A stretch of DNA of 64,000 bases from an uncultured Acidobacteriota bacterium (lineage in GTDB: Bacteria; Actinomycetota; Acidimicrobiia; Spongiisociales; ZC4RG35): the NCBI GenBank assembly GCA_963780755.1, contig CAWACX010000001.1:174105-238104 (forward strand), in the 5' to 3' direction. The notes beneath the pieces were generated by a model. The model was not told the origin of the DNA. It saw only the letters and a list, made by a program, of their open reading frames with translations, and searched no databases. The translations under genes and the position numbers were made by a program. Shown one piece after another: positions 4,915 through 48,327 of the stretch (its first letter is position 1; each line of letters starts with the position of its first letter).

Positions 4915-6322
4915 CTAGTCCCGCTCCTCCGACGGGATGGGAGGCGGATCACCCGGCGGCGGCCAGGAAGGCGGTGGCTCGATCGAAGCCGGAGACAACG
5001 GCGTGAGGCGGTCGGCGACCCTGAGGAAGAAGCTGGCGGCCTCTTCGCGGCTGAGAGTGCGATTGCGGGCAGAAACGCCCGCCGCCACAACCTTCCGTCA
5101 ACCCGGCATCCGCAAACGTGTTGATGGCCGACTCCGCCCAATGCCCGCTGTCGTCGTTGAAAGCATTCCCACCAGAGGCTGGGAGCTTCAGGGCGCGCAC
5201 GGTCATCGTGGCGAACTCGGCGCGGGTCAGCATCCGATCAGGGCAGAAGGAGCCGGGATGACACCCGGTAGTGATCCCGGCGGCTGCCACCTTGTTGATC
5301 GCGCCCTCGAACAGGTGCCCGTTGTCGTCGGAAAAGAAGTCCCTGGGTGCAGGTGGGAGCGCGAGGACTCTGGCGAAGAGGGCGGCTACCTCCCCCCTGG
5401 TCATCAAGCGCTGAGGGCACGCGAGCCGGTAGCCGCATCCGTAGAGGAGCCCCCGGGCGTGGAGCTCGGTGAGCGCCTTCTTGTGAAGGCTGGCGTTGTC
5501 ATCGGTGAAGGGATCGAGGCATCCCACCCGCCCTTCCGTCGACACCACCACTTGGTCCATCGACATGGTGAGGTTGTTCGGTGTCGGCCAATCACCTCCG
5601 AAGTAGACGTTGAGCCACATCTCCCGGATCCCGACGCTGGATTCGGCCGCGCGACGAAACTGAATCCCGGTTCGCGTGAAGCGCTTCGTCCCGTCGAGCC
5701 ATCCTTCGACAACGCCATTGGCCTGACCGGGAGTGTTCAGTTTCACATGGCCCTCGATACATTGCCACCGCCCCTGCTTGAGGCTGGCCCCTGGCCAGTA
5801 CAGGCCCTCTCCACACTCTCCGGGCTGGTCGACGTGATAGAGGTAGATGCCGATGGGAACCGCTCCCGCCGGGGCCCCCTGGGTTCCTGCGGCGCCAAAG
5901 AGGCCTCGCGCCGACCATCCCGGGGAGCTCGGAGTCGACGGAATGCAGCCCCTCGCGCTCGCTGAATACAGGCCAGACAGGCCGGGAAGCTTCCCCGAAC
6001 CGGCAGAGTTCCAGTCGCGCAGCCTGATGTGATAGCGGTACCAGGCCTCGTCTGGAGAGGGCAGCGGCACTCTGTCGAAGGGGCCGAAACCGCGGAAGCC
6101 GCCGGTGGGGATGGTGACGTCCAGGCCGTAGCCGGCGAATCCGGTGCTCACCCGCTTGCCTCTTTGGACGTCGAGTGAGCGGTAGTCGACGAGCCCTTCC
6201 GCCCAGTCCTCGGTCTCGAAATCTCGAACGGCGACCGGCTCGGCGGAGGCGGGGAGCCCGACACCGGCCCCGACCATCAGGGCGGTCAGGACGAGGACGA
6301 TTCCAGATCGGATTGCCGTCAC
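4915..6322 (-). CDS. Secreted polysaccharide lyase (PL14-like) with three C-terminal SLH-like modules; frameshift near the 3' end
   Basis: Signal peptide (MTAIRSGIVLVLTALMVGAGVGLPASA), YHIRL...GKLPGLSG...GWSARGLF and GKWQ-like GRWQCIEGHVKLNTPG motifs, then SLH modules (LMTRGEVAALFARVL, MLTRAEFATMTVRAL, TLSREEAASFFLRV after the shift). Stop TAG reconstructed at 4915-4917. Confidence 0.75.
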
Positions 6323-6408
6323 CCGATGAAACCGTAGTTGCAGAACCGGGCTACGCGGTCACGAGCCGTCGTCTGGGTAACGTTGTGTGGCTTTGCTGGA
6401 AACCCAAG

Positions 6409-7514
6409 TGCCATCACGGCCAGGACGCCGATTCGATCACGCCGGCCGGATCGGCAGGCTTCGGCAATTGATGTCTGAGACCTCGACCGACGTCGTGATG
6501 CTCTCGGTCGGATCGGATCTGCCCTACTTCACCGGCTATGAGGCGATGGCGTCGGAACGCCTCACGATGCTCGTCGTGCGCCAGTCCGGTGACCCGATGC
6601 TGCTCGTGCCCCAACTAGAGGCGCCACGAGTCGGGCCCGGCCCGTACGAGATGGTGGCTTGGGGCTGATACCGAGGATCCGATCGGGATCGTGGCCCGGT
6701 CGGTCGGCAAGCCCACCCGGGTAGCGATCGGCGATCAGACCTGGTCGACGTTCATGGTCGGGCTGCAGCGAGAGCTTCCGGGTGTGAGCTGGCAGCTGGC
6801 GTCGGACCTGACCAAGCAGCTCCGAGCACGAAAGGATCCCGACGAGGTGGCAACCCTGCGATCCGCTGCAGAGGCCGTCGACCGGGTCCTGGCCAGGATC
6901 AGGTCAGAGGTACGGTTCGCCGGTCGATCGGAGAGGCAGGTTGCCCGTGACATTGCGCTGCTCACCGTCGAGGAGGGTCACGACGTGGCCTCCTTCACGA
7001 TCATCGGCTCCGGTCCCAACTCGGCCTCCCCGCACCATGAGCCCGGGCTACGGGTGATCAACGACGGTGATCTGGTGGTCTGTGACTTCGGCGGCCGGAT
7101 CGGTGGCTATTTCTCGGATGTGACCCGAACCTTCTCGGTTGGGGAGCCTGGCCCCGAGGAACTCGAGGTGCATGCCCTGGTCGAGGAGGCGAACCGCGTA
7201 GGCAGATCGGTGGTCGGGCCCGGCGTCGCCTGCCAGGAGGTCGATCGCTGGGCGCGTCGGTCATCGCCGGCGCCGGTTACGGCCGGTACTTCATCCATCG
7301 CACCGGCCACGGCATCGGTCTCGAGGTCCATGAGCACCCCTACATGGTCGAGGGCAACAGTCAGGTTCTCCAGCCGGGGATGGCTTTCTCGGTGGAGCCC
7401 GGCATCTATCTTCCGGGGCGATTCGGGGTGCGAATCGAGGACATCGTGGTCTGTACGGAGAACGGGGTGGATTCACTCAACAAAGCCGAGAGATCCCTCG
7501 TCGTAGTCAGCTAG
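6409..7514 (+). CDS. Xaa-Pro aminopeptidase (M24B), frameshifted at about 6665 and 7260
   Basis: Creatinase-like N-domain ([19 protein letters not shown]), then SASPHH, DFGG...SDVTRT and, after the shift, [24 protein letters not shown]. Confidence 0.88.
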
Positions 7515-8518
7515 TCAGCGCGGACCGTCGCCGTGGTGCGCTGAATCAATGCTCCATTCCATCGCCACTCTCCGACGAGTGTGTGGTTGCCCGGGGAGAA
7601 CACCAATGTCGTGTTCCAGCGTCGCAATGCCTGTGTCGACGATGTTGCGATCGCAAGCCCGGTGATCGACACCGGGTCTCCGTCGAGGATCAGGGTGAAA
7701 GTTGTATTCGAGGCGGTGAACTGAGCCTGCTCGCCTGCTTTGTAAGGCAGGACCTGGAAGAAGCCCTTCTTGAACCAGATGGGTCCGCCCGCTGAATGTC
7801 TCGATCAGCACCGAGCATGTGATTCCACCCTTGCCACAGCTGATCGGGGACCAATTGGCGAGAGGAAGCCGCTGTGGGTTGTGCGGGAGGTTCAGAGCAC
7901 GGGTCAGAAGCGTGGCGGTCTCACCACGGGTCAGTACCCGGTTGGGGCAAAAGCGATTGTTGGTGGGAGGGTTGCAGCCCACAGTGATCCCGGCAGCAGC
8001 GATCCGGTTGATCGGCCCTTCGAGCACGTGGCCGTTGTCATCGATGAAGAAGTCCTGATTGGTGTTCGGCAGGTCGAGGGCGCGGGTGATGAAGGTGGCG
8101 AACTCCGCCCTGGTGAGGTTGCGGTCGGGACAGAAACCGGTTGTTGGTCGGAGGGATTGCACCCAACGGTGAGCCCGGCGCCGCACCTTCGGTTGATCCC
8201 ACCCTCGAGAATGTGCCCGTTGTCGTCGACAAAGAAGTCCGGCTGGTGTTTGGGAGCTTGAGGGCACGAGTGAGGAATGTCGCCGCTTCGGCCCTGGTCA
8301 CGCTGTCGTTGGGGCAGAAGCGGTTGTTGGACGGCGGGTTGCATCCGGACGTGATATCGGCGAGGGCCATCGCCTCGATCCCGTTCTCGTGCGGGCTCCC
8401 GTTGTCGTCGACGAACGTTCCCTGGAGCACAACCGCGTCAGCCTGATCCGGCCAGAGCACTACAACCGTGCCCACCAGCACCGCCCCGGCGACACCGATG
8501 GTCAAGCCAGCGTCTCAT
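7515..8518 (-). CDS. Secreted protein with three SLH-like modules and an unknown C-terminal domain; frameshifted
   Basis: N-terminal signal/TM (TIGVAGAVLVGTVVVLWPDQADA), repeats GCNPPSNNRFCPNDSVTRAEAATFL, NLTRAEFATFITRAL, VLTRGETATLLTRAL. ATG at 8516-8518 overlaps the upstream TGA. Confidence 0.8.
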
Positions 8519-11580: not shown

Positions 11581-12465
11581 ATGCGGCTTGCCTTGCTCGG
11601 GGTCATACAATCCTGTCCCGTGGCTGTCTCCACCTCCCGAGGGATCACCTACCGCGCCCGAAGGTTGCGGACGTATGCGACCGACCTCTGGGGGCGCCGC
11701 GAGTTTGCCTGGTTCCTGGCGATGGGCAACCTCAAGGCGAGGAACGCTTCCACGGCCTTGGGGCTCTTCTGGTGGGTGCTCAATCCTTTGCTGCTCGGTC
11801 TCGTTTACTTCTTCGTTTTTGGCATTCTGTTTGCTGGTTCCAGCCGCCCAGAGGGATACATCGCATACCTGCTCTCGGGGATGTTCGTGTTCCATTTCAC
11901 CAACCAGTCGATGACGGGTGGGGCCAACGCCATCCTTCAGAACTCGAAGCTGCTGGCGAATTTGAAGTTCCCACGTCTGGTGCTCCTCATCTCGAGCCTC
12001 ATCGAGTCCGGCGTGGGCTTTCTCGCTTCCCTCGTCGTGTTCTATGCGATTGCCTGGCCTGCAGCCGGCGCTCATCCTTCGCGTTACACCCTGTTCCTCT
12101 TGGTGATCTTCCCCATACAGGTGATCTTCAACCTGGGCTTGAGCTCGATCGTGGCTCGGATGGCTGTGCCATTTCGGGACATCAACAACTTCCTCCCCTA
12201 TGTCAACCGACTCTGGCTGTACCTGTCGCCGATCATCTGGCAGCTCTCGTTCCTCGAGGACGCCGACCCGGCGATCCGCACGTTGGTCGAGCTGAACCCG
12301 ATGTTCCACATCATCGAGCTCTATCGAACTGCGTTGATCGGATATCCCGAATATCCGTTCCAGTGGGACAACCTGTGGACCGCACTGGCGTGGGCCGTGG
12401 GCGTATTCCTCCTGGGGGTGGCCGGCTTTGTCCGCTACGAGACGCGAATGGTTCGCTACCTGTGA
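11581..12465 (+). CDS. wzm: ABC-2 polysaccharide export permease (Wzm/TagG-like)
   Basis: LKARNASTALGLFWWVLNPLL, NLKFPR, FRDINNFLPY, LNPMFHIIELYR; multiple TM helices; coupled to the ATPase. Confidence 0.92.
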   Translation: MRLALLGVIQSCPVAVSTSRGITYRARRLRTYATDLWGRREFAWFLAMGNLKARNASTALGLFWWVLNPLLLGLVYFFVFGILFAGSSRPEGYIAYLLSGMFVFHFTNQSMTGGANAILQNSKLLANLKFPRLVLLISSLIESGVGFLASLVVFYAIAWPAAGAHPSRYTLFLLVIFPIQVIFNLGLSSIVARMAVPFRDINNFLPYVNRLWLYLSPIIWQLSFLEDADPAIRTLVELNPMFHIIELYRTALIGYPEYPFQWDNLWTALAWAVGVFLLGVAGFVRYETRMVRYL

Positions 12466-13202
12466 AAGGCTGGGCAATCAAGGCCGAGGAGGTAACGGTC
12501 GCATTCCGCCCCTTCGTGGAACGGAAGCCGACCTTGCGCCGAACGCTGGCCAATTTTCGGAGCAGGCAACGCGAGCTGGTGACCGCGCTCGACCATGTGA
12601 GCTTTGATGTGAAGAAAGGCGAAGCTTTCGGGATCGTCGGCCGCAATGGCGCCGGTAAGAGCACCCTGATGAGGGTCGTTGCCGGGACACTGCGCCCCGA
12701 CGAGGGTCGCGCCGTCAGCTCCGGCCGCACTTCGACGTTGCTTCAACTCGGGGTGGGCTTCAACAACGAGTTGTCCGGGATCCGCAACATCTACCTCGGT
12801 GGGCTCGCCGCCGGCCTTCGAAGGAAGCACATAGACGAGCTATTCGACGACATCGTCGCCTATGCCGAGCTCGAGGAGGCGATCGATCGTCCCATCAAGA
12901 CGTATTCGTCAGGGATGTTGTCCCGTCTCGCTTTCTCGATCGGCATGCACCTCAACCCGGACATCCTGCTCCTCGACGAGATCCTCAGCGTGGGTGACGA
13001 GTCGTTCCGGGTCAAGAGCGAGCAGACGATGCAGGACCTGCTTGGCAGATCGGGGACCATCGTGTTCGTCTCTCACAACTTGAACAAAGTTGCCGAGTTC
13101 TGTGACCGGGCAATGTGGTTGGAGCGGGGCATGGTGCGCCACATCGGTGAGGCTGGCGATGTGGTCGACCACTACCGGGCAGCCGTGGCGTCGGGCTTGT
13201 GA
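12462..13202 (+). CDS. wzt: ABC polysaccharide export ATPase (Wzt/TagH-like) with no C-terminal carbohydrate-binding module
   Basis: GTG start overlapping the wzm stop; Walker A GRNGAGKS, signature YSSGM, Walker B LLLDE, SHN. About 246 aa. Confidence 0.93.
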   Translation: MKGWAIKAEEVTVAFRPFVERKPTLRRTLANFRSRQRELVTALDHVSFDVKKGEAFGIVGRNGAGKSTLMRVVAGTLRPDEGRAVSSGRTSTLLQLGVGFNNELSGIRNIYLGGLAAGLRRKHIDELFDDIVAYAELEEAIDRPIKTYSSGMLSRLAFSIGMHLNPDILLLDEILSVGDESFRVKSEQTMQDLLGRSGTIVFVSHNLNKVAEFCDRAMWLERGMVRHIGEAGDVVDHYRAAVASGL

Positions 13203-14394
13203 TTGTGACGAGTGAATCGTCGGAGCCTCTGGTCGATCCCGCGCTGCTGGCTGCCCGGGCCAGGTTGGCAATGGTCGCCGCCGAGCTCGGCCTCGGAGTC
13301 ACCATTGCCCACAGAGGATCGACCGGAATCAGAAACCCCCTTCATGCCCTTGGTCACCGTCGTGATGCCGGTGTTCAACGACGAGAAGTTCGTAGCTGCT
13401 GCCGTCGACTCGGTCCGGCGACAGACCTATCCCAATTGGGAGTGTGTGATCGTGGACGACGCGTCGGTCGACACCTCGTGGGACATTCTCCGGTCGGTCA
13501 CCGATGGCGACGACCGCTTCCGAGTCGCCCGGCAGCCGAGCAATCAAGGCCCGGCAGCCGCACGCAACCGCGCGATCGAATCATCCAAAGGCGACTTCGT
13601 GGCTTTCCTCGACGGCGACGACCTCATGCTTCCTTACAGTCTCGAGGATCGGGTCGCCGCCTTGATCCCACATCGTGATGACCCGCACATAGCCGGGTCA
13701 TATTCCGGTGCCCGTTTCGGGGCCGAGGAATCGAAGTTGGGAGATTTCCCGGTACGTCAGAGCGCAACCCTGCGGCCCTTTGTCGACTTCGTGATCTCCG
13801 ACGGGGAATGCCCGTTCAGCATCATCGCCCCGCTCGTCGAAGTTGCCGTAATCAGAGGTGTCGGTGGTTTCGACGAGAAGATGCGCTCGGGGGCGGCCGA
13901 TTGGGAGCTTTGGCATCGCATATTGCGCAATGGCCACGTCTTCGTGTCGGCACCGGTCCTCGGTGCCGTGTACCGGCAGAATGGGAGTGGGTTCACCCGG
14001 ACCAATCCGGCGTCGCACACAGCGGTCGCAGCTCGTTTGATCGGCGCCGCACACAAGAGATTCTCGAGGCGCTCATTGCGCGCCCCCACCCCGTTCCCGA
14101 TGCGAGAGCCGATCGGCCACTACCGGATGATCCTCAAAGTCGCCGAGAGGGCGACCCGATTCGCTGCGATGGCCCTGGTTGACGGCAAACCCGACGAGAT
14201 GATCTCGACGTTGTCGGTGCTGCAGCCCGGGTACATGGCCCCTGCTGGAAAGGCACTTGGCTGTCGGCGACTTGGTGAAGGCGGGCGCGGCGAGGTCGCT
14301 CGGAATCCTCCCAGGCCAGCTCGACACCGAGCTCGATGTCTTGTCGCCATTGGTGACCACGGTCAGAGCTGGGATGGCAGAGGCAAGCGCATGA
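13199..14394 (+). CDS. GT2 glycosyltransferase, frameshifted
   Basis: LVTVVMPVFND, VDDASVD, NQGPAAARN, FLDGDD. A shift at about 14230 restores WPLLERHL...MAEASA* ending in ATGA at 14391-14394. Confidence 0.8.
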
Positions 14395-15281
14395 CCGCGC
14401 CACGGGCCTCCATCGTCATTCGGTGCCACAACGAGGCTGACCACATCGGAAAGCTGTTCGCCGAGCTCAAACGGCAGACTTTCACCGACTACGAGATCGT
14501 GGTCGTCGACTCCGGGTCGGATGATGGGACGCTCGACATCGTCGAAGGTGAGGATGTGGTCCTCGAGCACATTCGCAAGGAGGAATTCAGCTTCGGGCGC
14601 TCGCTCAACCTGGGGTGCCAGGCCGCTTCGGGGGAATTCTTGGTGTTCATCTCGGCGCATTGCTATCCAGAGCACGAGTCCTGGCTGGAGAACCTGATAT
14701 CGGCTTTCGACGACGACAAGGTGGCCGTGGCCTACGGCAAGCAAAGGGGCATTCCCGAATCGCACTTCTCGGAGCGCCAGATCTTCCGCCGCTGGTTCCC
14801 CGAGGAGTCGGTCCTTCGCCAGGACGGGCCCTTCTCCAACAATGCCAACGCCGCGATCCGGAAATCGCTGTGGGAGTCCCATCCATACGACGAAGCCGTG
14901 ACCGGGCTCGAAGACGTGGCCTGGGCCCAGCAGGTGATGCGCGAGGGTTGGTGGGTCAGTTATCGCGCCGACGCCGGCGTGATCCACGTCCACAACGAGA
15001 CACCGAGCCAGATCCGCAATCGATACCGTCGTGAGGCGATCACCTTCCAGAAGGTCTTTCCCGGTGAGCACTTCAACGCATGGGACTTCCTGCGGCTCTC
15101 CGCAAGGAACGTGACAGCCGATGCCAGCGCCGCCCGGGCTGAGGGCATGGGACTGGCCGCAATCTGGCCGATCGTTCGCTTTCGGCTGTCGCAGTTCGCC
15201 GGCACCTACCAGGGGTTTCACATGCGACGGCCCCCTTCGAGCGATCTCAAGAAGCGCTTCTATTACCCCGAGGAACCTTGA
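14391..15281 (+). CDS. GT2 glycosyltransferase (rhamnosyltransferase-like)
   Basis: MTAPRASIVIRCHNE, VVDSGSDDGT, FSFGRSLNLG, FSNNANAAIR, LEDVAW, HVHNE. Confidence 0.88.
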   Translation: MTAPRASIVIRCHNEADHIGKLFAELKRQTFTDYEIVVVDSGSDDGTLDIVEGEDVVLEHIRKEEFSFGRSLNLGCQAASGEFLVFISAHCYPEHESWLENLISAFDDDKVAVAYGKQRGIPESHFSERQIFRRWFPEESVLRQDGPFSNNANAAIRKSLWESHPYDEAVTGLEDVAWAQQVMREGWWVSYRADAGVIHVHNETPSQIRNRYRREAITFQKVFPGEHFNAWDFLRLSARNVTADASAARAEGMGLAAIWPIVRFRLSQFAGTYQGFHMRRPPSSDLKKRFYYPEEP

Positions 15282-15282
15282 G

Positions 15283-15945
15283 TTGAGCCTGGCCGGCCTG
15301 ATCCCGATGAAGGGCCATTCCGAGCGTGTGCCGGGCAAGAACTTGAGGCTGATGGCGGGCAGGCCTCTGTTTCATTGGATAACGGAGACCCTGACCCGCG
15401 CAGACAACGTGGACGAGGTCGTGATCGACACCGACAGTGATGAAATCGAGGCCGCCGTCCGTGCTTCCTTTCCGGAAGTCACCATCCATCGCCGCCCCGA
15501 CCACCTACACGGCGATTTCGTGCCGATGCACGACGTGGTCACCGAGGTTGCCAGGGCGCTCGGCCACGACCATCTTCTCCAGACCCATTCCACCAACCCG
15601 CTGCTCCGCACTGAAACCGTGGAAGCCGCGGTCGAGTCCTATCTGGAGCCGGGGGAGCACGATTCGCTGATGTCGGTCACCGCCTTGCAGACCCGGTTCT
15701 TCTTCGAGGACGGCCGCCCGGTGAACCACGATCCGGCAGTGTTGCTTCGAACCCAGGACCTGGCTCCGATCCTCGAAGAGAACTCCTGTCTCTACATTGC
15801 CCCGCGCTCCCAGGTGGTGACGACCGGCAGGCGGGTAGGGCCGAAGCCAAAGTTGTTCGCCATTCCTCGGGAGGAGGCGGTGGACATCGACGAAGAGCTC
15901 GATTTCGCCATCGCCGAGTTCCTGCTGGAGCGTGCTCATGGCTGA
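15283..15945 (+). CDS. Acylneuraminate/ulosonate cytidylyltransferase (NeuA/CMAS family)
   Basis: LIPMKGHSERVPGKNLR, VIDTDS, THSTNPL, EENSCLYI, DIDEELDF. Confidence 0.88.
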   Translation: MSLAGLIPMKGHSERVPGKNLRLMAGRPLFHWITETLTRADNVDEVVIDTDSDEIEAAVRASFPEVTIHRRPDHLHGDFVPMHDVVTEVARALGHDHLLQTHSTNPLLRTETVEAAVESYLEPGEHDSLMSVTALQTRFFFEDGRPVNHDPAVLLRTQDLAPILEENSCLYIAPRSQVVTTGRRVGPKPKLFAIPREEAVDIDEELDFAIAEFLLERAHG

Positions 15946-17571: not shown

Positions 17572-17584
17572 AGGGAGGATCGTT

Positions 17585-18877: not shown

Positions 18878-18897
18878 GCAGTTCTCCCGATCTCTCC

Positions 18898-21550: not shown

Positions 21551-21577
21551 CCAGGCACACCGGGGAGTGAGGCGAAT

Positions 21578-22552: not shown

Positions 22553-22570
22553 AGGCGCCTCCCCATGGGC

Positions 22571-24595: not shown

Positions 24596-24693
24596 GGGCG
24601 TGGTTGGGCTCGGGTGAGGCGCGGATCAGTGGATTCGACGGGATGAATCTATCGACAGGGCGCCGATATCGGCTATCAGCTCGCGAGGCGTGC

Positions 24694-37218: not shown

Positions 37219-38634
37219 TCGACCACGTCGTAATACTCGGAGACCACTTCCAGGCGGCGCTTCCGATATTCCTCGCTCGAGTCGGGGAGCAGATGCTCGA
37301 AGGGGGCGCCCAGGTCGAGATCAGACCGGCTCAACTCGGTGGTGATCGCCAGCGGCAATGGGCCTCCGCCAATTGGAGTCTCAGGGACGTCGACCAATCG
37401 CACCTCGGTTCTCTTCCCTCTCGCCGCCGGCTCCCTTCCCAGCATCCGCTTCAGCGAGTCGGTGCGCTCCTCACCGATGGCGACCTTGACCGAGTCTTTC
37501 GCCCTTTGCACCGTGTCTGCGATCGCCACCGACGGTTTGCGCCGGCGGGTATCGAAGCCCGTAGCCAATGCGACCACGGTGGATGCCGTCTGTTCTGCGC
37601 CGACAACCTCCGAACGGGTGGCGGCTGCGGCTGCGGCGAGCTCGGCGCGTTTCCCGGGTACTAAGAGCTGCTGCAGAGCCGTGACAACAGCCTCCGGCTG
37701 GTCGTCCGCGGCGTTCACCCCGATCCCGAGCTCGGTGAGTCTGCGGGCCCTCGCGACCTGGTCGTCGGTTCGGGTGGATGTGTTGGCGACGAACAACGAA
37801 GGCACCCCTGATGGCACGAGCTCGTGAACGGCGTTGTACCCGGCGGAGCTGACCGCCAAGTCGAATGCCGACAGGTAGGCCACCAGCGGATAGATCCCTT
37901 CGAGGTGGGTGATCCGGTCGGCGGTTGCGAAATCGAGGCGGTTCCGAGCAACGGCCGGCGAGGTCACGGCGAGGTGGAAGTCGGTATTCGACAACAGGGT
38001 TTCGATTGCCACCGATCCCGGGCCGGCCACGTCACCGAGCATCCCGGATCCCAGGGTTATCAAGGCGATCTCGGCGTCGAGGGGGAGACCGAGTGCCGCG
38101 CGGGCGTCGGCACACGGCAGAGGGTCGAGGACCTCGATCAGGCTCACCGGCGCCACACGCTCGACATTGCGGGCGCCTGCAGTGGGACCACGGTCCATAC
38201 CGGCGAGGTCCCCGGGCTCGATCACGAGGTCAAAATGGCCGGCTCGGCGCAACTGGCCGGTGTTGGTCCCCTCCTGCCACATCCCCCGCCGCAGCCAGGA
38301 AAAGGCGACGTCACGAAGCCGCGGCCGATGCCATCGCGATTCCCGGATAGACCGCGACGCCGTCGAACAGGACCACCTCGGCTCCGATCTCCTCGACGAT
38401 TGCGATGAGGCGGTCGCGCAAGTAGCCGTGCCATTCCCGGCCGGCGATCCATGGCTTGTCATAACTGGGGGCGTATTCGCCTCGTAATCCGAGGCCCAGC
38501 GCAAGCGGCAGCCCGACCGAGAGCGAGAAGAGTGTCGGATGATCCTCGCTTCCCAGTGAGAGCCCGATGGCGGCCTGTCGGGTGAGGTGGCCCATGCCGG
38601 TCCCGTTGCTGGTGACGAGGAGGACGCTGGTCAT
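37215..38634 (-). CDS. GT-B glycosyltransferase (GT28/MurG-like), frameshift at about 38330
   Basis: LVTSNGTGMGHLTR, LITLGSG, AVSSAGYNAVHE. Confidence 0.78.
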
Positions 38635-41123
38635 GCCTTGAGTGCGGCCCCAAGGAGATCGCTGGCGTTGGCGAGACGCTCCCGGTAGAGCGACACCGAG
38701 CTCACCATCTCTGGTGGGGCCGCATCGCCCATGGCATCGGCCAGGTCCAGCACTTTCGCCGAGCTGAGCTCGTCCGAACGGACCACGAAGTCTCCCATCT
38801 CGACCGAGAAGGCGAAGTCGCGGACCTTGGGCCGGTACTCGATGGCGATGAAGGGCCGGCCGGCAGCGGCAGCCAGGACGCAGGCGTGGAGCCTCTCACC
38901 GACCACGAGGGAAGCCCCCGCAAGCAGGTCGAGGCTCTCTTGGACGTCCGTGTACCCGGCGTGGTAGCCAACGGGGACCTCGCCGAGCATCTCCTTGATC
39001 TGGAGGATCGGGCGATCGTCGCTGGGATGACACGACATCAGCGTCACCTCACGTCCCAGGTCACGCCATGCCTGTATCGCTCCCGCCAGCTCGCGAAAGA
39101 CGTCGAGGTCCGAGCCACCCCACAACTCGCCATTGGTCCACGCGGGGGCCACGACTATTGGCCCGCCGCCGCTTGATACCTCCCGAGACGGCGTTAGCGC
39201 GAGGGCGGAGTCCCCGCAGATCTCCAACTCGCCCTTGTAGCCCCAGTTCTGGAGTGTCTGTGCCGAGTTGGGCCCTCTAACCCCGACGTATGCGCAGGTC
39301 CCCAGCCAGCGGAGCCATTCAGTGGTGTCCTCGGTGAGCCCCCAGAAGCCGGGGCTGGCGACACCGGTCCCAAACACTGCTCGCTCGATTCGTGGCGAGT
39401 CGCGCTCGGTCAGCCAGCGCAGGTACTGGTTGCGATTGATGAGGGTGCCGCCGCCGAGCAGGAGGAGGTCCCTCGCCTCGCCCCGCGCCTCGACGTCGCC
39501 CCACGCCATGAGCTCGCGGACCGCCTCGAGCATTGCATCGTCGCCCAGGTTGTCTTTGCCCACCCAGCCCACATAGCGAACGCCGGGCCGGCGCTCCGCA
39601 TCGGTCCTTGGCCTGGCAGACGGGGGCCGGGCGGGTCGGAATCGAGCCTTTGCGATCTGGAGCCCGGTCCTGAGAGTGGCTCCCGCCCCCATTTGCGTGG
39701 CCTCGTAGAGCTGGCGTGATCGGCTGGTGGCAAACGAGAAACCGTCCGGGCGTTCGGTTGGTTCCGAGCCGGGCAGTGCGATGAGTGGGTGGGAGTGATG
39801 GATCAGGTCCGCTCCATTTCGCACATCGGCGAGCGCCGCTTCGACCTCGACCCCGGAATCGAGCCGGAGAACGAGAGCACGGCGGCGCATTGCCAGCGCC
39901 AGCGGGAGGTCGCGGCCCCACGACGTCTCGAGATATCTCAGGTCCTCTTCTCTGGTGTAGGGGCCTTCCGGGACATCGATCCCGAAGGTGAGAGCCTCAG
40001 CCGTCGGGCGGGCGTCCAGCCGCTTGCGGAGGTTTTGGAGCAGTGTCGGGCCAGGGGCGGCATGTCCGTTGACGAACACCAGATATTCGCCCCGGGATGC
40101 CCGCACTGCTTCCTCCACCACCGGGATGAATGAGATCCTCCGCTCACCATCCGCCGCTCCGGCGAAGGGATCGTGATCGCCGCCGTCGGCGAGCACGACC
40201 ATCTCGAAGTCGGGAAGGCTTTGGCCGCCGAGGGCACGCCACCAGGCGACCGGCGCACCGTCAGGGGTGTCATGGATCAGCACCGAGAACTTCGGTACCT
40301 CCGGTGGCGGCTCCGGCATCCCCTTCCGATAGAAACGCTGGGGCACCAGGCTGGTCAACAAGCCCCGGTTCAGGTTGCGAGCCTGATTCCTCCCTTCGGT
40401 GCCTCCGGCGGTATCGGAGTCGAGTTGGTGGTAGATCCTGGCTTCCGGATCCTCGACGAACTTCGCGCCCGCTTGCCAGAGACGCCATCCGAGCTCGGAG
40501 TCCTCGCTGCCCCACCAGCGGAATCGCTCGTCGAAGCCACCGACGCTCTCGAATAGTGCGCTCGGTAGCGAGACATTGGAGGAGACGAAGGCCCGGTACC
40601 CCTCGTCGGTCGCCTGCAAGCCCGATGTGCGGCGGGTGAGGACAACCCGGAAGTCCTCATGCTCTTCGAACTCGAGGGCAGCGAGGTCGACTGCCCCGGA
40701 AGCGAGATCGCTCGCCTCGAGGCCGGCGGCGCTGAGATGGACGCGTCCACCTATGACGACGCTGTTCGCCCCGTCCCGATGCCATCCCGCATGCCTCGCC
40801 ACGAAGTCAGGCCCGACGATGGCATCGGAGTCGAGGAAGATCACGACATCGGAGGAGACGGACCGCGCTCCCAGGTTGCGAGCGCGGGCGGCTCCGAAGC
40901 CTTCGTGCTCCTGTCGCACATAGCGTCGGTCGAACGGGGGGTTCCATCCCTCGACCAGGGAAGCGATGTCTTCGCTTGAGCCATCGTCGGCCACGACAAC
41001 CGTCAGCAGTTGAGTCGGGTAATCCTGGGCGCTCAACGATCCGAGGGTCCGTTCCAACACCGGCGATCGGTTGAAAGTGGGGATCACCACAGCAACCCGG
41101 ATCCCGGCTCCCTGTTCACTCAT
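38631..41123 (-). CDS. GT2 glycosyltransferase fused to a C-terminal polysaccharide pyruvyltransferase domain
   Basis: GT2 motifs (VVIPTFNR, ADDGSS, GAARARNLG, FLDSD, WGSEDSE), then GKDNLGDDAM, LLGGGTLI, FGTGV, VGVRGPNS, GDSAL, GERLHACV, YRPKV. Single open frame. Confidence 0.88.
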   Translation of the reverse strand: MSEQGAGIRVAVVIPTFNRSPVLERTLGSLSAQDYPTQLLTVVVADDGSSEDIASLVEGWNPPFDRRYVRQEHEGFGAARARNLGARSVSSDVVIFLDSDAIVGPDFVARHAGWHRDGANSVVIGGRVHLSAAGLEASDLASGAVDLAALEFEEHEDFRVVLTRRTSGLQATDEGYRAFVSSNVSLPSALFESVGGFDERFRWWGSEDSELGWRLWQAGAKFVEDPEARIYHQLDSDTAGGTEGRNQARNLNRGLLTSLVPQRFYRKGMPEPPPEVPKFSVLIHDTPDGAPVAWWRALGGQSLPDFEMVVLADGGDHDPFAGAADGERRISFIPVVEEAVRASRGEYLVFVNGHAAPGPTLLQNLRKRLDARPTAEALTFGIDVPEGPYTREEDLRYLETSWGRDLPLALAMRRRALVLRLDSGVEVEAALADVRNGADLIHHSHPLIALPGSEPTERPDGFSFATSRSRQLYEATQMGAGATLRTGLQIAKARFRPARPPSARPRTDAERRPGVRYVGWVGKDNLGDDAMLEAVRELMAWGDVEARGEARDLLLLGGGTLINRNQYLRWLTERDSPRIERAVFGTGVASPGFWGLTEDTTEWLRWLGTCAYVGVRGPNSAQTLQNWGYKGELEICGDSALALTPSREVSSGGGPIVVAPAWTNGELWGGSDLDVFRELAGAIQAWRDLGREVTLMSCHPSDDRPILQIKEMLGEVPVGYHAGYTDVQESLDLLAGASLVVGERLHACVLAAAAGRPFIAIEYRPKVRDFAFSVEMGDFVVRSDELSSAKVLDLADAMGDAAPPEMVSSVSLYRERLANASDLLGAALKA

Positions 41124-42860
41124 GATCTCTCGACCTCGAAAGGCATGATCCGGTAGCTCGGCGCCATGAGGTCGACTCTGGTGATCCCGTCGCGCTCCTC
41201 GACCTTCGCTTGGGGGGCCTCGGAGGCGAGGAATCTGCGGAGCCCGCGGGCCGATCCCTCGATATAGATGTAGCGCCGGGCAGCCAACAGGAAGTCCTCG
41301 AGGCCATCGAGATCCTCGGCCCGGGTCGCCACCGTTTCCATTCGGCCCCGACCGAGGCGTTCCTTGGTCAAGGCGGCTGCATCCCAGACCTCGCGGTCGG
41401 GTAGTTCTTCCACCAGATCAGGCGCGGCCAGGTGGGCGACTCTCTGCACCTCCACATCGTCGTCGATGGCCCTCGCCAGGGTGGATGTTGGGTCGGCTCG
41501 GGAGATGGAGCGCTTCTCGGTCCGGATTGCGATCTCGAACAACTCGTCGACTCGATGGTCGTAAGTGTGAAGCCCCATGGCGCGTTCCAGAGCGGAGTCG
41601 GCGATGTCCTGAAGCGAAGACGGATCCCCGAGGAGTCGATTCACATCGCGAACCACGTCGTCGGTCAACACGGCGTACTGCGACCCTTCGTCGAGGATCA
41701 TCTCCATGCCGGGGAGCCGGTCCGACAACAAGACCGCTCCGGAACCAACCGCTTCGAGCACCCGCATCGTGATCGGATAGTGGCGGGTACCGCCCTCGTT
41801 GATCACGATCCTGGAGTCACCGTACAAAGTCGGCCATCTCCTGCGCCGAAACTGCCTCTTTGAACCCGAGATGGTCAGCGGGCAGCGCGTTGTCCAACTC
41901 GCTCACCAACTGCTGGCGCCGCCCGTAGGGCCCGCCGCCGCGGATCTTGGCCCCAACCATCGCCACGTCGTAGCGGCGTTCGGCAAGCGGGCGCCGTGCG
42001 TCGAGCAACTCGGTGGCCACCCCGAACGGAAAGCGGTGCACTGGGGCCGAAAGCCAATAGGCGAGGTGCCATGAGTGAGCCATCAGCACCGCATCGGCTC
42101 GGTAGCGATCGGCGAGACGGGAATTTGCGTGGAGATGGTGCTCTCCGTGGTGAAACCAGAACAGGACGGGCACTTGGGTATCGCCGGTCACCTTCAACGC
42201 CGGATAGGGGCCTTCGACGAACATCACGAAGTCGGTGTTGGGGTCGACTGCCGAGAGATCGATCCCTTCGGTCTCCACGCGAACGTCGGCACCACTGCGA
42301 GTCAGCCCGGCCTCCAGGTACTTGCCCGGGTTGATCTCGCTCTTGCGGTAACAGAGCACGACCTTGCGGCCTCGAAAGCGCCCGGGCTCAGGGAGGTACG
42401 GTCGTCGCTGGTCTTGGGGAGTGTGAAAGGAGCCAAACCCGGCGACCGGCGCAGCCAACTCCGGTCTCGTCGGCGCCAGGTCGATGAGATCTACTTCCGG
42501 CACCGGATCCATTTTGGGGGTACGGGCAACGGCCCCGCCGGTCTCTTTGGCGGCCTCGACGGCCGCAGCGAGAGCCCGCAGGTCGGTCGGGACATAGATG
42601 TCTGCGCCAGTAGAGGCGGCGGATGCCGCCAGCGCACGGGTCAGCCGCGCTGCCTTCTCGTCGGCCGAAATGCCCCTTCCCTGGATCCGGTCCCATAACC
42701 CGACCCCGTCGACTTTGACGCGGGTCACGCCTGGCAGAACGGGTCCCGCTACGGGAAGGACTGTGTCGACGGTGTGGCCCGCCTTCCCAAGCAGATATCG
42801 GGTGACGCGGGCCCTGGGGTCGGTGAGGGCGTCGTTGGGCGCCACGAGGCAGATATGCAC
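41120..42860 (-). CDS. Glycosyltransferase (GT4-like N-part plus CgeB/Glyco_trans_1_2-like C-part), frameshift at about 41830
   Basis: DPRARVTR N-terminus; YDVAMVG, IVINE, ITMRVLEAVGSGAVLL, HTYDHRV. Confidence 0.75.
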
Positions 42861-42901: not shown

Positions 42902-44707
42902 TCAATCGAACTCCACCGCTCGCTTGATGAATGCTGCCATCTGGCCGCGCGTCACCAGATCGGTGGGGCAATACCGGTTATTGGTCGGGGGATTGCATCC
43001 CTGCGTGATCCCGGCGACCGCGATCTTGTTGATCGCGTGCTCGAAAACCGAGCCCTCGTCGTCTACGAACCGATCGGCTCTGTGTTGGGGGGAGCGACAA
43101 GGCTCTGGCCAACATCGCCGCCATCTCGTCACGCCTGATGTCGTCACCACCGCAGAAGCGCCTTGTCCCGCAGCCCACGGTCAGGCCGGCCGCGGCCAGG
43201 CGGTTGGCCGCCCCTTCATAGAACTGGCCCTCGTCGTCGTTGAAGTAGTCCGTTCCCGACTCCGGGAGCCCAAAGGCGCGGGAGAGAAACACCGCCATTT
43301 CGCCGCGGGTCACTCTCTGCGTGGGGCAGTAATTGGTGTTTGCAGGCGGGTTGCAGCCCTGGGTGATGTTGGCGTCGGCGAGCCAGTCGATGGCATCGAC
43401 GAAGACGGAGCCCAGCGGTGTCCACGAAGCGGTTGGTGATGCTGCGCCCGATGTTGAGACGACCGCTCTGGACGGTTCCGCTCGATGCCGGCGGTCGGTC
43501 GGCGAATGCCTTTAGTCGGGCTATGACCTCCTGATGGCCGATCCCCGGGTCGTGGGCGAGGAGCAGCGCCGCGGCACCAGCAACGATGGGGGAGGCAGAA
43601 AGAAGTCCCGTCGGCCAGTATGTATGGGTCGATCGAGGATGAGCCCGGTGGTCAGAATGGCCTGGCCGGGAGCCGCTATGTCGACCCAGTGTCGGCCGTA
43701 ATTGCTGAAGAAGCGACAGTTGTCCAGGTCGTTGCGTGGCGCCGACTGCGATGATGTTCGAGAAGGGCAGTCCGCCGGGATGAAGGTCTCGCCGGAGGGT
43801 GGCAGGGCGTCGAGGTCGATGCCCTCGTTGCCGGCGGCCGCCACGACAACGACATTTCTGGACCTCGCATAGGAGATGGCCTCCCTGAGCAAGGGATCGT
43901 CGTCGGTGACGCCCCCAAACGAGAGATTGATCACATCTGCGCCCTCGTCGGCGGCGTAGAAGATCGATTCTGCTGCGGGGAGGCTCCAGCAACCGTCGGA
44001 GTCGCAGGCTCGAAGGGCCATGATTCTCGCTGCCGGAGCGACCCCAGCGATCCCAATCCATTGCGGCCGCGGCGACCAATCCGGCGACTGCGGTCCCGTG
44101 GTTCGCAGCGGATCCCGATCCCACCGGGCTCGGATTGTTGTCATCGCTGATGAAGTCCCATCCTTGGAGTCGTCCAGAAGCCCACTGCCATCCTGGTCTC
44201 CGCCCCCGGACGGGTCGTTGTTCGTCCAGATCTGGGCCGCAGGTCGGGGTGGCACAGCTCGACCCCTGAGTCGATCACGGCGACCATCACACCGGCGCCG
44301 AGAGTCGACTCCCAGGCCGTTGGCGAGTCGATGTCGGCGTCGGGGCGGCCGCCGGTCTGCCCGGTGTTGTGGTGATACCACTGGTCCCCGAAACCGGGCT
44401 CATCGGTCGGGGCCGCAGGATGGTCGTAGCGATTCTCGACGATCACCTCGACTCCCAGCTCGTCGGAGAGGGCGTCGGCTGCGTCCTGGGCGTTCTCCGT
44501 GGTCTGTCACCTCGACCCGCTCCCAGCCAGATCGATGGCCGTCCGCGTCCGGCTCTGCCTGGGCCGCAAATCTCGTCGGCGATGGCAAGCGATGTGCCTG
44601 CCGGGACGAGCAGTCGGACAGTCTTCGCCTCTCCCTCGGCGGCGGTTTGCTGGGTGAAGAGGCTCGGCCACGAGGAGCAGCGAGAGGACGAGCGGACATC
44701 GGGCCAT
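42902..44707 (-). CDS. Secreted S8 subtilase with three C-terminal SLH-like modules; many frameshifts
   Basis: VAVIDSG, NHGTAVAG, VINLSFG, AAAGN, GTS(F)ASPIVAG, then VTRGEMAVFL, IRRDEMAAML, VTRGQMAAFI. Confidence 0.85.
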
Positions 44708-44747
44708 GCTCCCAGACTTTGTGGCTTTGTCGACAAGAGCGGTTACC

Positions 44748-44761
44748 TTGACCCGGGTCAA
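44748..44761. promoter_or_regulatory. Perfect 14-bp palindrome TTGACCCGGGTCAA between divergent SLH genes, possible operator
   Basis: Read directly from the sequence. A second palindrome, TTGTCGACAA, lies at 44727-44736. Confidence 0.3.
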
Positions 44762-46465
44762 TGTCGTTCCTTGCCACCCTTGCTTTGGTGGCTGCGCTGC
44801 TCCCCACAGCGGCGCTGGCACCCGGTGGGACGTTCACCGACGACGATCAAATCGTCCACGAGGGCGGCATCGAAGCCATCGCCGCGGACGGGATAACGGT
44901 CGGGTGCAACCCGCCATTCAACGACCGTTTCTGCCCGAGTCGCCTGCTGACCAGAGCGGAGATGGCGACGATGGTCGCTCGTGCCCTCTCCCTCCCGGCG
45001 CCGCAAAGCGACCATTTCATCGATGACGAGGGTCACATCCTCGAAGGGAGCGATCAACCGAATCGCCGACGCCGGGATCACGCAGGGCTGCAATCCACCG
45101 AGCAACAATCGGTTCTGCCCGAACCGTGACCTGACCAGGGCAGAGGCCGCAGCGTTCATCGCCCGCGCGTTTGGATTGCCCGGATCTGGGCAGAACTTCT
45201 TCGTAGATGACAACGGCCATGTCCTCGAGGGCGCGATCAACCGCCTTGCAGCCGCCGGGATCACGGTTGGGTGCAACCCGCCTACCAACAACCGGTTCTG
45301 CCCCAACCGCGTGCTCACCCGAGGTGAGATGGCGACCATGTTGACCCGGGCGATGGGCTTGACCTCGATGAAGCCCCCACCCCGGCCACCACTTGGCCTG
45401 GCAGCTGGTGGTCAGCGGCCTTAGCTGCCCGATCCAGGTCGCTCAACCCCCGGCGAAGACCCGCCTCCTGATCGCTGAGCAGGGTGGGCTGGTCAGGGTC
45501 TTCGAGAACGGGGCGCTGCGCACCCAACCGTTCCTCGACCTGACGGACAAGTGGTGTTCGGTGGAGAACGAGGGCTGCTCTCGATCGCGCTCCATCCCGA
45601 TTACCCAGCCGACCGTCGCCTCTTCGCCTGGTACTCGGCTCCGCTTGCGCTCCGGTGGAGCGGGGAATCACACCACATACATTGGTGGAATTCGACATCT
45701 CCGCCGACCTCCAAGTCGGCGTCGTCCCACGCGTCAACTGCTGGCGTCGACCAGCCGTCCAACAACCACAACGGCGGGTTCCTCGACTTCGGCGCGGATG
45801 GCTATCTCTATCTCAGCCTGGGTGACGGTGGGGGGGCCAACGACCCGGGCAACCGGGCGCGAAACCTGAACACGCTTTTCGGCAAGATGATCCGAATCGG
45901 CGTCGATGGCGCTGCAGCCGTACTCCATTCCCTCGGACAATCCATATGTGGGAGAGCCGGGACGCGATGAGATCTGGGCCTCGGGCTTGCGCAACCCATG
46001 GCGGTGGTCCATGGACAACGGGTTCCTTACATCGGCGACGTCGGGCAGGGAGCCCGGGAGGAAGTCGACGTGGTGCGGGTCAACCCTGTCGGATACGACT
46101 TCGGGTGGTCCCGCTACGAGGGAACGCTTGTGCAACCCCAACGACAGCGATCCCAGTTGCGCCACGTCCGGCCTGACGATGCCGGTTTACGAGTACGGCC
46201 GCTCGGGGGGGAGGACCGTGACCGGCGGGATGGTCTACCGGGGCCCCACTGTGCGTTCCTTGAGCCGTTACTACATCTTCGCCGATTTCGGGTCCGGGCA
46301 TGGTGCGCGGGTTCCGCCTGCTCAACGGCCGTCCGGTCGAAGCCCGTGACCTCATCGGCCGGCTTCGTGCGCCCGGCCTGGTTTCCTTTGCCGCCGACGC
46401 CGATGGCGAATTGCTCGCCGTTTCGCTGTATCGACGGCGCTGTCTACCGTCTCACCGGGGGTTGA
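44761..46465 (+). CDS. Secreted protein with three N-terminal SLH-like modules and a PQQ-dependent sugar dehydrogenase (GSDH) propeller; frameshifted
   Basis: LTRAEMATM, LTRAEAAAF, LTRGEMATM, then ERGLLSIALHPDY, NHNGGFLDFGADGYLY, GDGGGANDP, GLRNPWR. Confidence 0.85.
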
Positions 46466-46507
46466 TATCTGCTTCAGAGGCATGGGCCGCCGACCGATGG
46501 ACGAGGA

Positions 46508-48327
46508 GTGAGGCTTCGTCATCCGATTGCGGTTTTGGCCATTGGCCTGGCCCTTCTCACCATCGCCGCGCCCGCCTTCGCTGCCGATGAGGAGTGGGAA
46601 TTCGACGGCGGGGGATGGGGCCACGGCGTTGGGCTCTCCCAGTTCGGGGCGTTGGGACAGGCCCAGGATGGCCGAAACTCCACCCAGATCCTCCAGCACT
46701 ACTACGCCGGGACCTCGGTCGTCGAGATGCCCTCCCATTGGAGCACCGCGGCCAACGGTCTTTGGGTCGGACTGGTGCTCGAACGCCGACCGTTGTCAGC
46801 CTCACGGCCGGTCGGTGGGCCACTGACCATCTGTCAGCCCGCTGCGGTCTGCCCGCCGGCGAACGGGTCGGGTTTCACCGACGTCACCATCGATCCCGGC
46901 GAGTCATGGGTGTTCGAGTCCGTTGGCACCGGGGTGTGCCGTTTTCGCAAAGGGACCGAGGGAAATCTCGGGGCCGGGCCCGTGTGACGGCCGTCTCGCC
47001 AAGTCGACGAGCACGAATGTCCGGTTCCGGGTGAATGGCAAGGAGTACGCACGGGGGTCGATTCGCTTCACTCCCTCGTCGGGCGGATTCCACACCAATG
47101 TCACGTTGAGCCTCCAGGAGTACCTCTGTACGGGTCTGGCCGAGGTCCCGTCGTCATGGCCAACACATGCGCTCCGGGCCCAGGCGATCATCGGGCGCAG
47201 CTACGCAGTGGCCACCGCCGTGGAGCGGGGGGGCAGCGACGGGTCCGGGAAGCTGTCGAGTTGTGGGTGTCACCTGCGAAGCACTCCGGCGGACCAGGCC
47301 TACGCCGGATGGAGCAAGGAGGACCCGGCCAACGGTGGCAGCACCTTGGGTCGCGGCTGTGAACGACTCCGCAGGGGACATCCTGACCCATCCCCAGTCC
47401 ACTTATGCCTTCGATATCGCCAAGGCCTTCTACTCGTCGTCGAATGGGGGAGCTAGCGAGAACGTCGAGTTCGTGTGGGGTGGCGCTGCCTTACCGTGGC
47501 TTCGATCCGTGGCCGATCCTTGGTCCTCCGATCCGGACATAAACCCGCTCGCCCGCTGGACCGTGGTGGTGAAAGCCCCCAAGATCGCAGCGGCCTTTGG
47601 TTGGGAACGAGTGACGATGGTCGAGGTGACGAGCGGGCCTCCGGGCGCTGTGGTTCGATTCACCGGTCGAAATGCAGGGGCAGTTGTCACGAAAGACCTC
47701 TGGGGCGACAGCCTCCGACTCTTCCTCGGGGCAAACGCTTTCCGAAGAGACGGTGACCCGGTCCGGGTGTCCCCCTACGTGATCGGTATCCGCTACCAAG
47801 GCCCCTTCCTGGACATATCGGGCCATCTCTTCGAAGACGCCATCATCTGGATGGGCCAGGAGAAGATCAGCGAGGGTTGCAACCCACCCGTCAACTCCAA
47901 CTACTGCCCCGATGACAAAGTGACCCGTGGTGAGATGGCGGTCTTCCTTTCCCGCATCCTCAACCTTCCGATCCCCTCCGGAGACCACTTCAGTGACGAC
48001 GACGGGCGGTTCTACGAATCTGCGGCCAACCGCTTGTTCGAGGCGGGGATCACCGAGGGCTGTGGGGCGAATCGGTACTGCGGCGACCAGTTCATTCCCA
48101 GGGAGCAGATGGCCGCCTTCCTGGCGCGCACGCTTTCGCTACCGGCGAGCGGCGTCGATCATTTCATCGACGACGAGGGCTCGATGTTCGAAGGGGCAAT
48201 CGACAAGATCGCTCAGGCAAAGATCACCCTGGGGTGTAATCCGCCAACCAACAACCGATTCTGCCCCAAAGACCATGTGACCAGGGGCCAGATGGCGGCG
48301 TTCTTCAAGCGTGCCTGGGGATCCTGA
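46508..48327 (+). CDS. Secreted SpoIID/LytB-domain protein with three SLH-like modules; frameshifted at about 46985 and 47340
   Basis: Signal peptide, GGGWGHGVGLSQFGA, LQEYL...AEVPSSWP...ALRAQAIIGRSYA, FYSSSNGG, then VTRGEMAVFL, IPREQMAAFL, VTRGQMAAFF. Confidence 0.87.

Follow-up and report, generated by a model that had tools for sequence, protein, structure and literature searches.

When secreted proteins with S-layer homology (SLH) modules are encoded among glycan genes and close to a pyruvyltransferase gene, does the locus supply both a wall glycan and the proteins that are held on it? The question is raised by a 64,000-nucleotide stretch of DNA (hereafter, the window) from an uncultured bacterium of the class Acidimicrobiia (GenBank assembly GCA_963780755.1, contig CAWACX010000001.1). 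The assembly amounts to 2.2 Mb in two contigs and is 89% complete; the window is its C1:174105-238104, with a G+C content of about 65%. A first-pass annotation had proposed that six SLH proteins and the glycan genes around them form an anchoring system based on a pyruvylated wall polymer. As far as computation reaches, this interpretation is supported: from comparisons of sequences and predicted structures, we assign a probability of roughly 0.75 to a non-covalent wall display in which SLH-bearing enzymes would be held on a pyruvylated glycan made by the adjoining operon. Such a system is a lineage-specific version of the well-known Gram-positive anchoring system.

The six SLH genes surround and interleave with the glycan genes and the pyruvyltransferase gene. 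A six-frame search of the genome with the Pfam SLH family (PF00395) gave 12 matches above the cut-off, two of them inside the window, and hmmscan of the open reading frame (ORF) pieces placed four of the six loci above the gathering cut-off, at 33.9 to 47.8 bits (4949-6322 on the minus strand and 36052-37218, 44981-45424, and 47167-48327 on the plus strand). One further locus (7515-8267, minus strand) falls slightly under it, with 19.8 versus 20.8 bits, and the sixth, a fragment, gives no PF00395 match; intact orthologues of the window's SLH genes all pass. Because the modules are a divergent SLH variant, we built a dedicated hidden Markov model (HMM) from 11 window modules and ran it on the six-frame translation. 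This lineage HMM finds three tandem modules at all six places where the first-pass annotation had put them: 5057-5515, 7881-8421, and 42908-43412 on the minus strand and 36685-37215, 44827-45367, and 47803-48318 on the plus strand. The same three-module arrangement holds in 166 frames of related loci. The TRAE, TRGE, and TRGQ motifs that had first drawn attention to these modules are present, alongside SRGE, SREE, PREQ, ERDE, and RRDE.

The resemblance to characterized SLH trimers extends to the fold. When the triple of the window's M23 peptidase protein is aligned with Sap of Bacillus anthracis (3PYW and 6BT4; phmmer, E of 2e-9), the three modules are in register, with TRGE paired to TRAE, ERDE to DRVS, and SRGE to TKAE. 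An AlphaFold2 model of this triple, built on 106 related triples, reaches a pLDDT of 96.1 and a pTM of 0.90, and its 15 best PDB matches in Foldseek are all Sap or SpaA SLH trimers (TM 0.66 to 0.84), headed by 3PYW, 6BT4, and entries beginning with 6CW and 7SV, several of which are bound to 4,6-pyruvyl-ManNAc ligands; the first unrelated match has an E value of 0.23. Comparison with the Sap and SpaA SLH-pyruvate complexes, a check that the first-pass annotation had suggested, gives a match at TM 0.70 to 0.84, and we firmly assign the modules to SLH; in the model they adopt the three-pronged pseudo-trimer fold. Ligand contacts in SLH trimers are made by SLH-Arg43, SLH-Gly29, and SLH-Trp13 (PMC6081394). 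Across the 106 triples, the equivalents of SLH-Arg43 (R48, R107, and R169) are invariant, as are two equivalents of SLH-Gly29 (G93 and G152), the third (G31) being at least 90% conserved. All three modules also contain an invariant Cys pair (GC...FCP) that is absent from the aligned Sap sequence and from the SLH consensus motifs of PMC6081394; on its invariance alone, we take it to be a disulfide that staples a loop.

Most of the SLH triples are joined to recognizable domains. A predicted secreted PL14-like protein with a C-terminal triple (4915..6322, minus strand; Pfam Polysacc_lyase_14 49 bits, SLH 47.8 bits) is followed by a predicted secreted protein with an N-terminal triple and a C-terminal part without an assigned domain (7515..8505, minus strand; 34 to 110 bits with the lineage HMM, and 19.8 and 15.4 bits with Pfam SLH on pieces). 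C-terminal triples are also found on an M23 peptidase (36124..37218, plus strand; Pfam Peptidase_M23 62 bits, SLH 42 bits), on a subtilase of family S8 (42905..44846, minus strand; lineage-HMM modules, with Peptidase_S8 at 178 bits plus SLH in an orthologue), and on a SpoIID/LytB-domain protein (46508..48327, plus strand; Pfam SLH 33.9 bits and NCBIfam SpoIID_LytB, with SpoIID at 52 bits plus SLH in an orthologue). The remaining protein (44761..46430, plus strand), likewise predicted to be secreted, starts with its triple (Pfam SLH 36 bits on a piece) and continues into a glucose/sorbosone-dehydrogenase (GSDH)-like beta-propeller, for which orthologues score 114 to 124 bits plus SLH. All six had been described as secreted, which stands for the four in which a signal-like N-terminal peptide can be read by eye (ending after AAA and before F in the M23-SLH protein, and after AFA and before AD in the SpoIID-SLH protein) but has no such reading behind it in the other two.

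The window holds only part of the repertoire: with the lineage HMM, the whole genome contains about 15 triple-SLH genes, the window's six included. Further members carry an M15 peptidase plus FG-GAP, Amidase_2, or a second PL14-like domain, several others have no recognized domain, and there is no obvious S-layer protein among the scanned SLH proteins of the window and genome. A lone SLH-like module occurs at G000:C2:510046-510918, in a frame with collagen-like triple-helix repeats; it scores 58.6 bits with the lineage HMM and has no Pfam SLH match.

Between the M23-SLH and S8-SLH genes lie three glycan genes, all on the minus strand. The middle one (38631..41123) encodes an 830-amino-acid (aa) fusion of a family 2 glycosyltransferase (GT2; residues 9 to 235) with a PS_pyruv_trans domain (residues 525 to 763), separated by a conserved middle part (Pfam, 95 and 79 bits, respectively). 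The pyruvyltransferase match (PF04230) lies at 38835-39551 on the minus strand, within the 38.6- to 39.6-kb interval first proposed for it; it scores 78.7 bits against a cut-off of 25.3, covers profile positions 1 to 278 of 280, and is the sole copy in the genome, so that HMM matches to both SLH and PS_pyruv_trans, the initial check envisaged, were obtained. Full-length orthologues of the fusion occur in at least 12 genera at 41 to 77% identity, with invariant motifs in both halves. In an AlphaFold2 model (pLDDT 96), the pyruvyltransferase domain adopts a GT-B-like fold; the fold search returned generic GT-B proteins only (2-epimerases, WaaA, and WaaC, at TM of about 0.5) and no close solved relative, and a PDB sequence search with the domain returned no match.

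Upstream of the fusion, at 41120..42860, is a glycosyltransferase (GT) of ~580 aa, with an N-terminal part without an assigned family and a Glyco_trans_1_2 C-terminal part (Pfam); both parts adjoin the fusion in 33 to 34 of 37 large orthologous loci. Directly downstream of the fusion, at 37215..38504, is a GT with a GT28 C-terminal-like (MurG-like) domain (Pfam Glyco_tran_28_C, E of 1e-6), which stands beside the fusion in 20 of these 37 loci. A nucleotide-sugar 6-dehydrogenase resembling UDP-ManNAc and UDP-GlcNAc dehydrogenases follows the last SLH gene (48311..49630, plus strand; NCBIfam TIGR03026, 355 bits, with WecC and TviB model scores below their cut-offs) and is found in 23 of the 37.

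Comparison across genomes supports the link between SLH proteins and pyruvyltransferase well. Both Pfam families (PF00395 and PF04230) were searched for in one set of 301 genomes of the class. PF04230 is present in 28 of 41 SLH-positive genomes versus 42 of 260 SLH-negative ones (odds ratio 11, p = 3e-11), and in the home family, counting matches above the cut-off, 15 of 18 SLH-positive genomes and none of 18 SLH-negative genomes have the enzyme (p = 3e-7). The co-occurrence that the proposal implied is therefore strong at both levels. Within three genera (g3, g5, and g10), genomes have both features or neither, never one alone, and the enzyme is present in all eight SLH-positive genomes of no more than 20 contigs.

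Gene order tells the same story. A search with the single 830-aa protein as query gave no match, and an alignment of fusion orthologues retrieved 80 related loci. Among those of at least 15 kb, 39 of 45 have triple-SLH genes within 10 kb of the fusion orthologue, which bears out the expected synteny, and most syntenic loci share the order SpoIID-SLH, SLH-GSDH, S8-SLH, GT, GT2-pyruvyltransferase, GT28-like, and M23-SLH, in the window's orientation. Synteny is kept down to 40% identity of the fusion enzyme; the six non-syntenic loci comprise four distant matches (three in other phyla and one in Acidimicrobiia) and two Acidimicrobiia loci. What is conserved as a unit is the part from 36 to 49.6 kb. 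The idea that the locus encodes both the glycan and its SLH clients is supported for that part, but the ABC exporter block, which had been counted in, is variable in relatives.

Several observations weigh against an anchoring role, and most of them would fit an explanation in which the SLH genes and the operon are mere neighbours, the operon making a pyruvylated exopolysaccharide or capsule and the Cys-stapled trimers binding peptidoglycan or a non-pyruvylated polymer. One of these is the nature of the enzyme, for which the first-pass annotation had cited CsaB as the precedent. The CsaB model TIGR03609, the only pyruvyltransferase-type NCBIfam match of the fusion, gives 88.1 bits against a cut-off of 213.1 and aligns over model positions 119 to 291 only; this score is similar to the best (79 to 80 bits) of those for enzymes from SLH-negative genomes (33 to 80 bits), whereas the full model is matched at 134 to 201 bits by standalone enzymes of other Acidimicrobiia families, taken from SLH-positive genomes. 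We also built a maximum-likelihood tree of 76 pyruvyltransferase domains, none of them a Firmicute CsaB; in it, the CsaB-like enzymes form one clade (support 100/100), and the fusion domain lies across a 100/100 split from it on a separate deep branch. Its own 63-row clade (92/89) consists of Acidimicrobiia sequences that are full-length fusions where the contig allows, with six sequences that lack SLH neighbours placed between the two clades (two from Acidimicrobiia, the others from Planctomycetota and a betaproteobacterium). On the TIGR03609 score and the tree placement, CsaB orthology was rejected, and the fusion is best read as working in CsaB's place. The same explanation can draw on the GT2-pyruvyltransferase fusions of Planctomycetota and a betaproteobacterium, which have no SLH neighbours, on the breadth of PF04230, as seen in the 42 SLH-negative genomes of the class that contain it, and on the binding site, in which SLH-Trp13 (sugar-stacking in SpaA) is replaced by His in module 1 and Phe in modules 2 and 3, one residue off Sap's Trp position, with no Trp conserved across the triples. 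Also on this side of the balance, TagA (PF03808) and UDP-GlcNAc 2-epimerase (PF02350) were not detected in this 89%-complete genome; SLH/CsaB-bearing control genomes all have both. Finally, genomes with many SLH proteins and no pyruvyltransferase, named at the outset as telling against the proposal, do occur: 13 SLH-positive metagenome-assembled genomes (MAGs) lack any such enzyme, even with the CsaB model at E of 0.1, and four of them carry 8 to 15 SLH matches. All 13, however, are fragmented (at least 50 contigs each), and congeners of five of them (G070 and G206 in genus g6, G114 in g27, and G291 and G297 in g24) have the enzyme; they are probably assembly gaps, yet they are the main caveat. 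Mere neighbourhood nonetheless seems unlikely to us: joint presence and absence within the family and its genera is hard to obtain by chance, synteny outlasts much sequence divergence, the pyruvate-binding Arg and Gly are kept in three modules across 106 triples, and every near-complete, low-contig SLH-positive genome has the enzyme.

A different objection comes from the state of the genes. In the assembly, only the M23-SLH gene is intact (a single frame, 90.5% identical to its same-genus orthologue); each of the other five SLH genes runs through two to four reading frames, and there are at least 10 breaks across the SLH genes plus one in the ~580-aa GT. If these breaks were real, the system would be decaying and the locus a pseudogenised remnant. 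The gene at 4915..6322 has one break, within module 3, after which the continuation "LSREEAASFFLRV" is read in another frame to the true stop at 4915-4917; the gene at 7515..8505 has at least two, with three frames each holding part of the modules. At least three breaks each interrupt the S8-SLH and SLH-GSDH genes, for which tblastn alignments to orthologues (intact ones, in the case of S8-SLH, with matches over several frames) are collinear, and two interrupt the SpoIID-SLH gene, which keeps 78 to 89% identity to its same-genus orthologue across three frames. The ~580-aa GT is two ORFs in the window and a single frame spanning both parts in a relative (L017), so that its two-ORF state is probably a frame break as well. 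Because the break points sit at G/C homopolymer runs and the orthologues are intact in relatives (SpoIID-SLH, SLH-GSDH, S8-SLH, and M23-SLH architectures in L015, L017, L018, L025, L027, and L034), the breaks are probably long-read homopolymer errors, that is, assembly indels, not gene decay. The window's pieces are collinear with same-genus orthologues at 78 to 90% identity across the breaks, breaks also occur in unrelated window genes (the pepP-like gene at 6691-7506 and rmlA) and in SLH genes outside the window, and a long-read MAG from the same project (L077) is fragmented alike, whereas short-read relatives are intact. We consider decay still less likely than mere neighbourhood. Least credible of all, and to our minds scarcely worth entertaining, is that the SLH modules tether an outer membrane in the manner of OmpM: SLH modules and a pyruvylated polymer do so in diderm Terrabacteria such as Thermus, Deinococcus, cyanobacteria, and Thermotogae, but the same survey scores Actinobacteria as monoderm (bioRxiv 10.1101/2021.05.31.446380), the scanned SLH proteins (the window's six with their orthologues, plus ten others of this genome) contain no porin domain, and their assignable partner domains are soluble enzymes.

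Clean long ORFs with typical codon usage are absent from 26400-33200, where RmlA is a fragment and three long ORFs have no Pfam match. This region is probably dense in assembly indels.

Taking wall anchoring as the preferred reading, we envisage the following mechanism. The clients would be about 15 secreted enzymes with an SLH triple at either end, six of them encoded in the window, and by their predicted domains mostly wall-remodelling (M23, M15, Amidase_2, SpoIID, S8 protease, PL14-like, and GSDH-like). The grooves of the trimers, which by alignment keep the pyruvate-ketal-binding Arg and Gly of Sap and SpaA, would hold these enzymes on a ketal-pyruvylated wall glycan. Its epitope would come from the conserved three-gene operon of the ~580-aa GT, the GT2-pyruvyltransferase fusion, and the GT28-like GT: the acceptor sugar would be attached to a lipid-linked intermediate by the GT2 half of the fusion and would then receive pyruvate from phosphoenolpyruvate through the C-terminal half. 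Export might conceivably pass through the window's Wzm/Wzt transporter, and attachment to peptidoglycan may fall to one of four LCP ligases encoded in the genome, of which the best-scoring, also the nearest, lies 5.4 kb past the window end. Overall, the arrangement resembles a rack on which wall-remodelling enzymes and exo-enzymes are displayed.

The acceptor sugar may differ from that of known systems. A canonical pyruvyl-ManNAc epitope is unsupported because TagA and 2-epimerase were not found, and TagA is unassociated with SLH plus pyruvyltransferase in the class (8/28 versus 102/273). Epimerase_2 is common in the order and is not tied to the fused type. By inference, it is the fused GT2 that provides the acceptor sugar, which need not be ManNAc; the adjacent nucleotide-sugar 6-dehydrogenase, which is often co-conserved, is a hint that the polymer contains a uronic acid. 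Three Acidimicrobiia genomes in which TagA was not found have a 2-epimerase-like gene no more than a few kilobases from their CsaB-like enzyme (G066:C123:8158-11061, G182:C27:85245-88151, and G038:C4:5764-9919).

As for export, the first-pass annotation was correct in seeing an ABC glycan exporter and many GTs among the SLH genes: a Wzm/Wzt-type ABC-2 permease and ATPase (Pfam ABC2_membrane, PF01061, and ABC_tran, PF00005) lie at 11581..13202 on the plus strand, and the window has at least eight GT domains by Pfam, those of further GT2, GT28-like, and GT1-like proteins included. Homologues of Wzm/Wzt occur within 10 kb and on the same side, downstream of the fusion, in 5 of the 37 large loci. 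Since it is not within 10 kb in most relatives, the exporter block was rejected as part of the conserved unit. Its connection with the pyruvylated glycan is no more than suggestive, and the polymer that it exports may be this one or a different one.

A bolder version of the proposal would have two Acidimicrobiia families swapping CsaB for a non-orthologous, GT-fused pyruvyltransferase, a single enzyme that would both add the sugar and pyruvylate it to make a non-ManNAc epitope. This epitope would be read by disulfide-stapled SLH trimers active in all three grooves, as the main means of anchoring wall-remodelling enzymes in an abundant and mostly uncultured class. This we put forward tentatively, at clearly less than even odds.

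How far the locus departs from known systems is best seen by direct comparison. The BSL (S-layer-associated) proteins of B. anthracis include wall hydrolases and are in this respect comparable to the window's clients. With the Sap/EA1/BSL and CsaB system of that species, the window shares three SLH modules forming one pseudo-trimer (TM 0.77 to 0.84 and root mean square deviation 1.9 to 2.2 Å against 3PYW and 6BT4), the TRAE-type Arg and the Gly of the GIIxG motif, and a pyruvyltransferase gene among SLH genes. Unlike in B. anthracis, the pyruvyltransferase is GT2-fused and not CsaB-like, TagA and 2-epimerase have no detected counterpart in the genome, the modules have the Cys pair and His or Phe for Trp13, the Arg is kept in all three modules and not just in some, and the scanned SLH proteins include no obvious S-layer protein. 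SpaA and SlhA of Paenibacillus alvei (6CWC, 6CWH, and 7SV3) share the fold at TM 0.70 to 0.78, despite 18 to 19% sequence identity, and read a pyruvyl-sugar epitope through Arg43 and Gly29, a reading that sequence and model suggest for the window as well. In the CsaB, TagA, and TagO pathway of P. alvei, TagA and then CsaB build a 4,6-Pyr-beta-D-ManNAc epitope on a lipid-linked disaccharide (PMC6081394, PMC6030368), whereas here the sugar-adding step would probably come from the fused GT2.

Nearer relatives offer a second comparison. CsaB-like enzymes of other Acidimicrobiia families (f3, f5, f8, and f38), together with an 888-aa fusion in genus g6, belong to the same class, accompany Cys-pair SLH modules, and have their pyruvyltransferase gene within 10 kb of SLH genes. 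They differ from the window type in matching TIGR03609 over its full length (134 to 201 bits), in the long branches that separate the two, and in the proximity of a 2-epimerase in G038, G066, and G182. In the home family itself, a second kind of fusion occurs in genera g6 and g9: beside SLH genes, frames of 888 to 900 aa contain a CsaB-like domain at full length, scoring 198 bits with TIGR03609 (G234:C43:5951-6907, G086:C16, and G258:C122). The home family therefore has two distinct pyruvyltransferase types in its SLH clusters.

In the same phylum and another class, Propionibacterium freudenreichii has SLH on secreted surface proteins (SlpA, InlA, and others), in a report that, unlike the present analysis, draws no link to a pyruvyltransferase or pyruvylated polymer (PMC5902329). 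SLH matches are frequent in Actinobacteria (PMC6801904, PMC6081394), and a phylum-wide survey notes SLH/CsaB as kept "in a few examples within Actinobacteria" (bioRxiv 10.1101/2021.05.31.446380). Our literature search found no paper pairing Acidimicrobiia with S-layer homology. The first-pass remark that no characterized SLH anchoring was known in this lineage is, for the class, in keeping with that search, but it is weakened for the phylum by these mentions and by the surface proteins of P. freudenreichii.

Other features of the window lie outside the conserved core. A variable glycan-synthesis block at 13212..27159 encodes, by Pfam, a double GT2, a CMP-sugar cytidylyltransferase with two dehydrogenases, a GT2+MptE-like protein, two methyltransferases, an AT3-SGNH O-acyltransferase, RmlD, and an RmlA fragment, and the 13- to 27-kb region is rarely conserved next to the core in relatives. 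Within it, at 15121-21550, the CMP-sugar cytidylyltransferase stands with a 2-hydroxyacid dehydrogenase and an SDR, with no recognizable NeuB/KdsA-type synthase, beside a protein of 1020 aa that joins GT2 to an MptE-like (DUF115/Maf-like) domain. At 9676-11325 (minus strand), the second SLH gene and a membrane protein flank a Cys-rich secreted protein and a series of GDWNGDG-type repeats, with frameshifts breaking them up. A class A penicillin-binding protein with transglycosylase, transpeptidase, and two C-terminal PASTA domains (58585-61131, minus strand) is located 10 kb from the SLH cluster. Near the start of the window, at 2985-4697 (plus strand) and directly after the E3 and E2 genes of a 2-oxoacid dehydrogenase, one 570-aa frame combines LplA-B_cat (lipoate-protein ligase B-type) with a radical-SAM lipoyl synthase (LIAS_N and Radical_SAM); this could reflect either a LipB-LipA fusion or the indel-prone nature of the assembly.

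Acidimicrobiia occur widely in soil, in freshwater, and in the sea, and to our knowledge almost nothing has been established about their envelope; likewise, we know of SLH/pyruvylated-polymer anchoring as worked out only in Firmicutes and a few diderm Terrabacteria. The general principle is textbook, and SLH/CsaB has been noted in some Actinobacteria before. Congeneric genomes that have both SLH proteins and pyruvyltransferase, or neither, amount to a clean natural experiment, and the fused GT2-pyruvyltransferase, the failure to find TagA or 2-epimerase, the Cys-stapled modules, and the three conserved Arg residues together indicate a variant chemistry. If this is true, the SLH-pyruvate recognition code would have been kept while the enzyme and the sugar were exchanged, and the system would provide both a compact bifunctional enzyme for pyruvylated glycans and a stable, disulfide-locked binding module.

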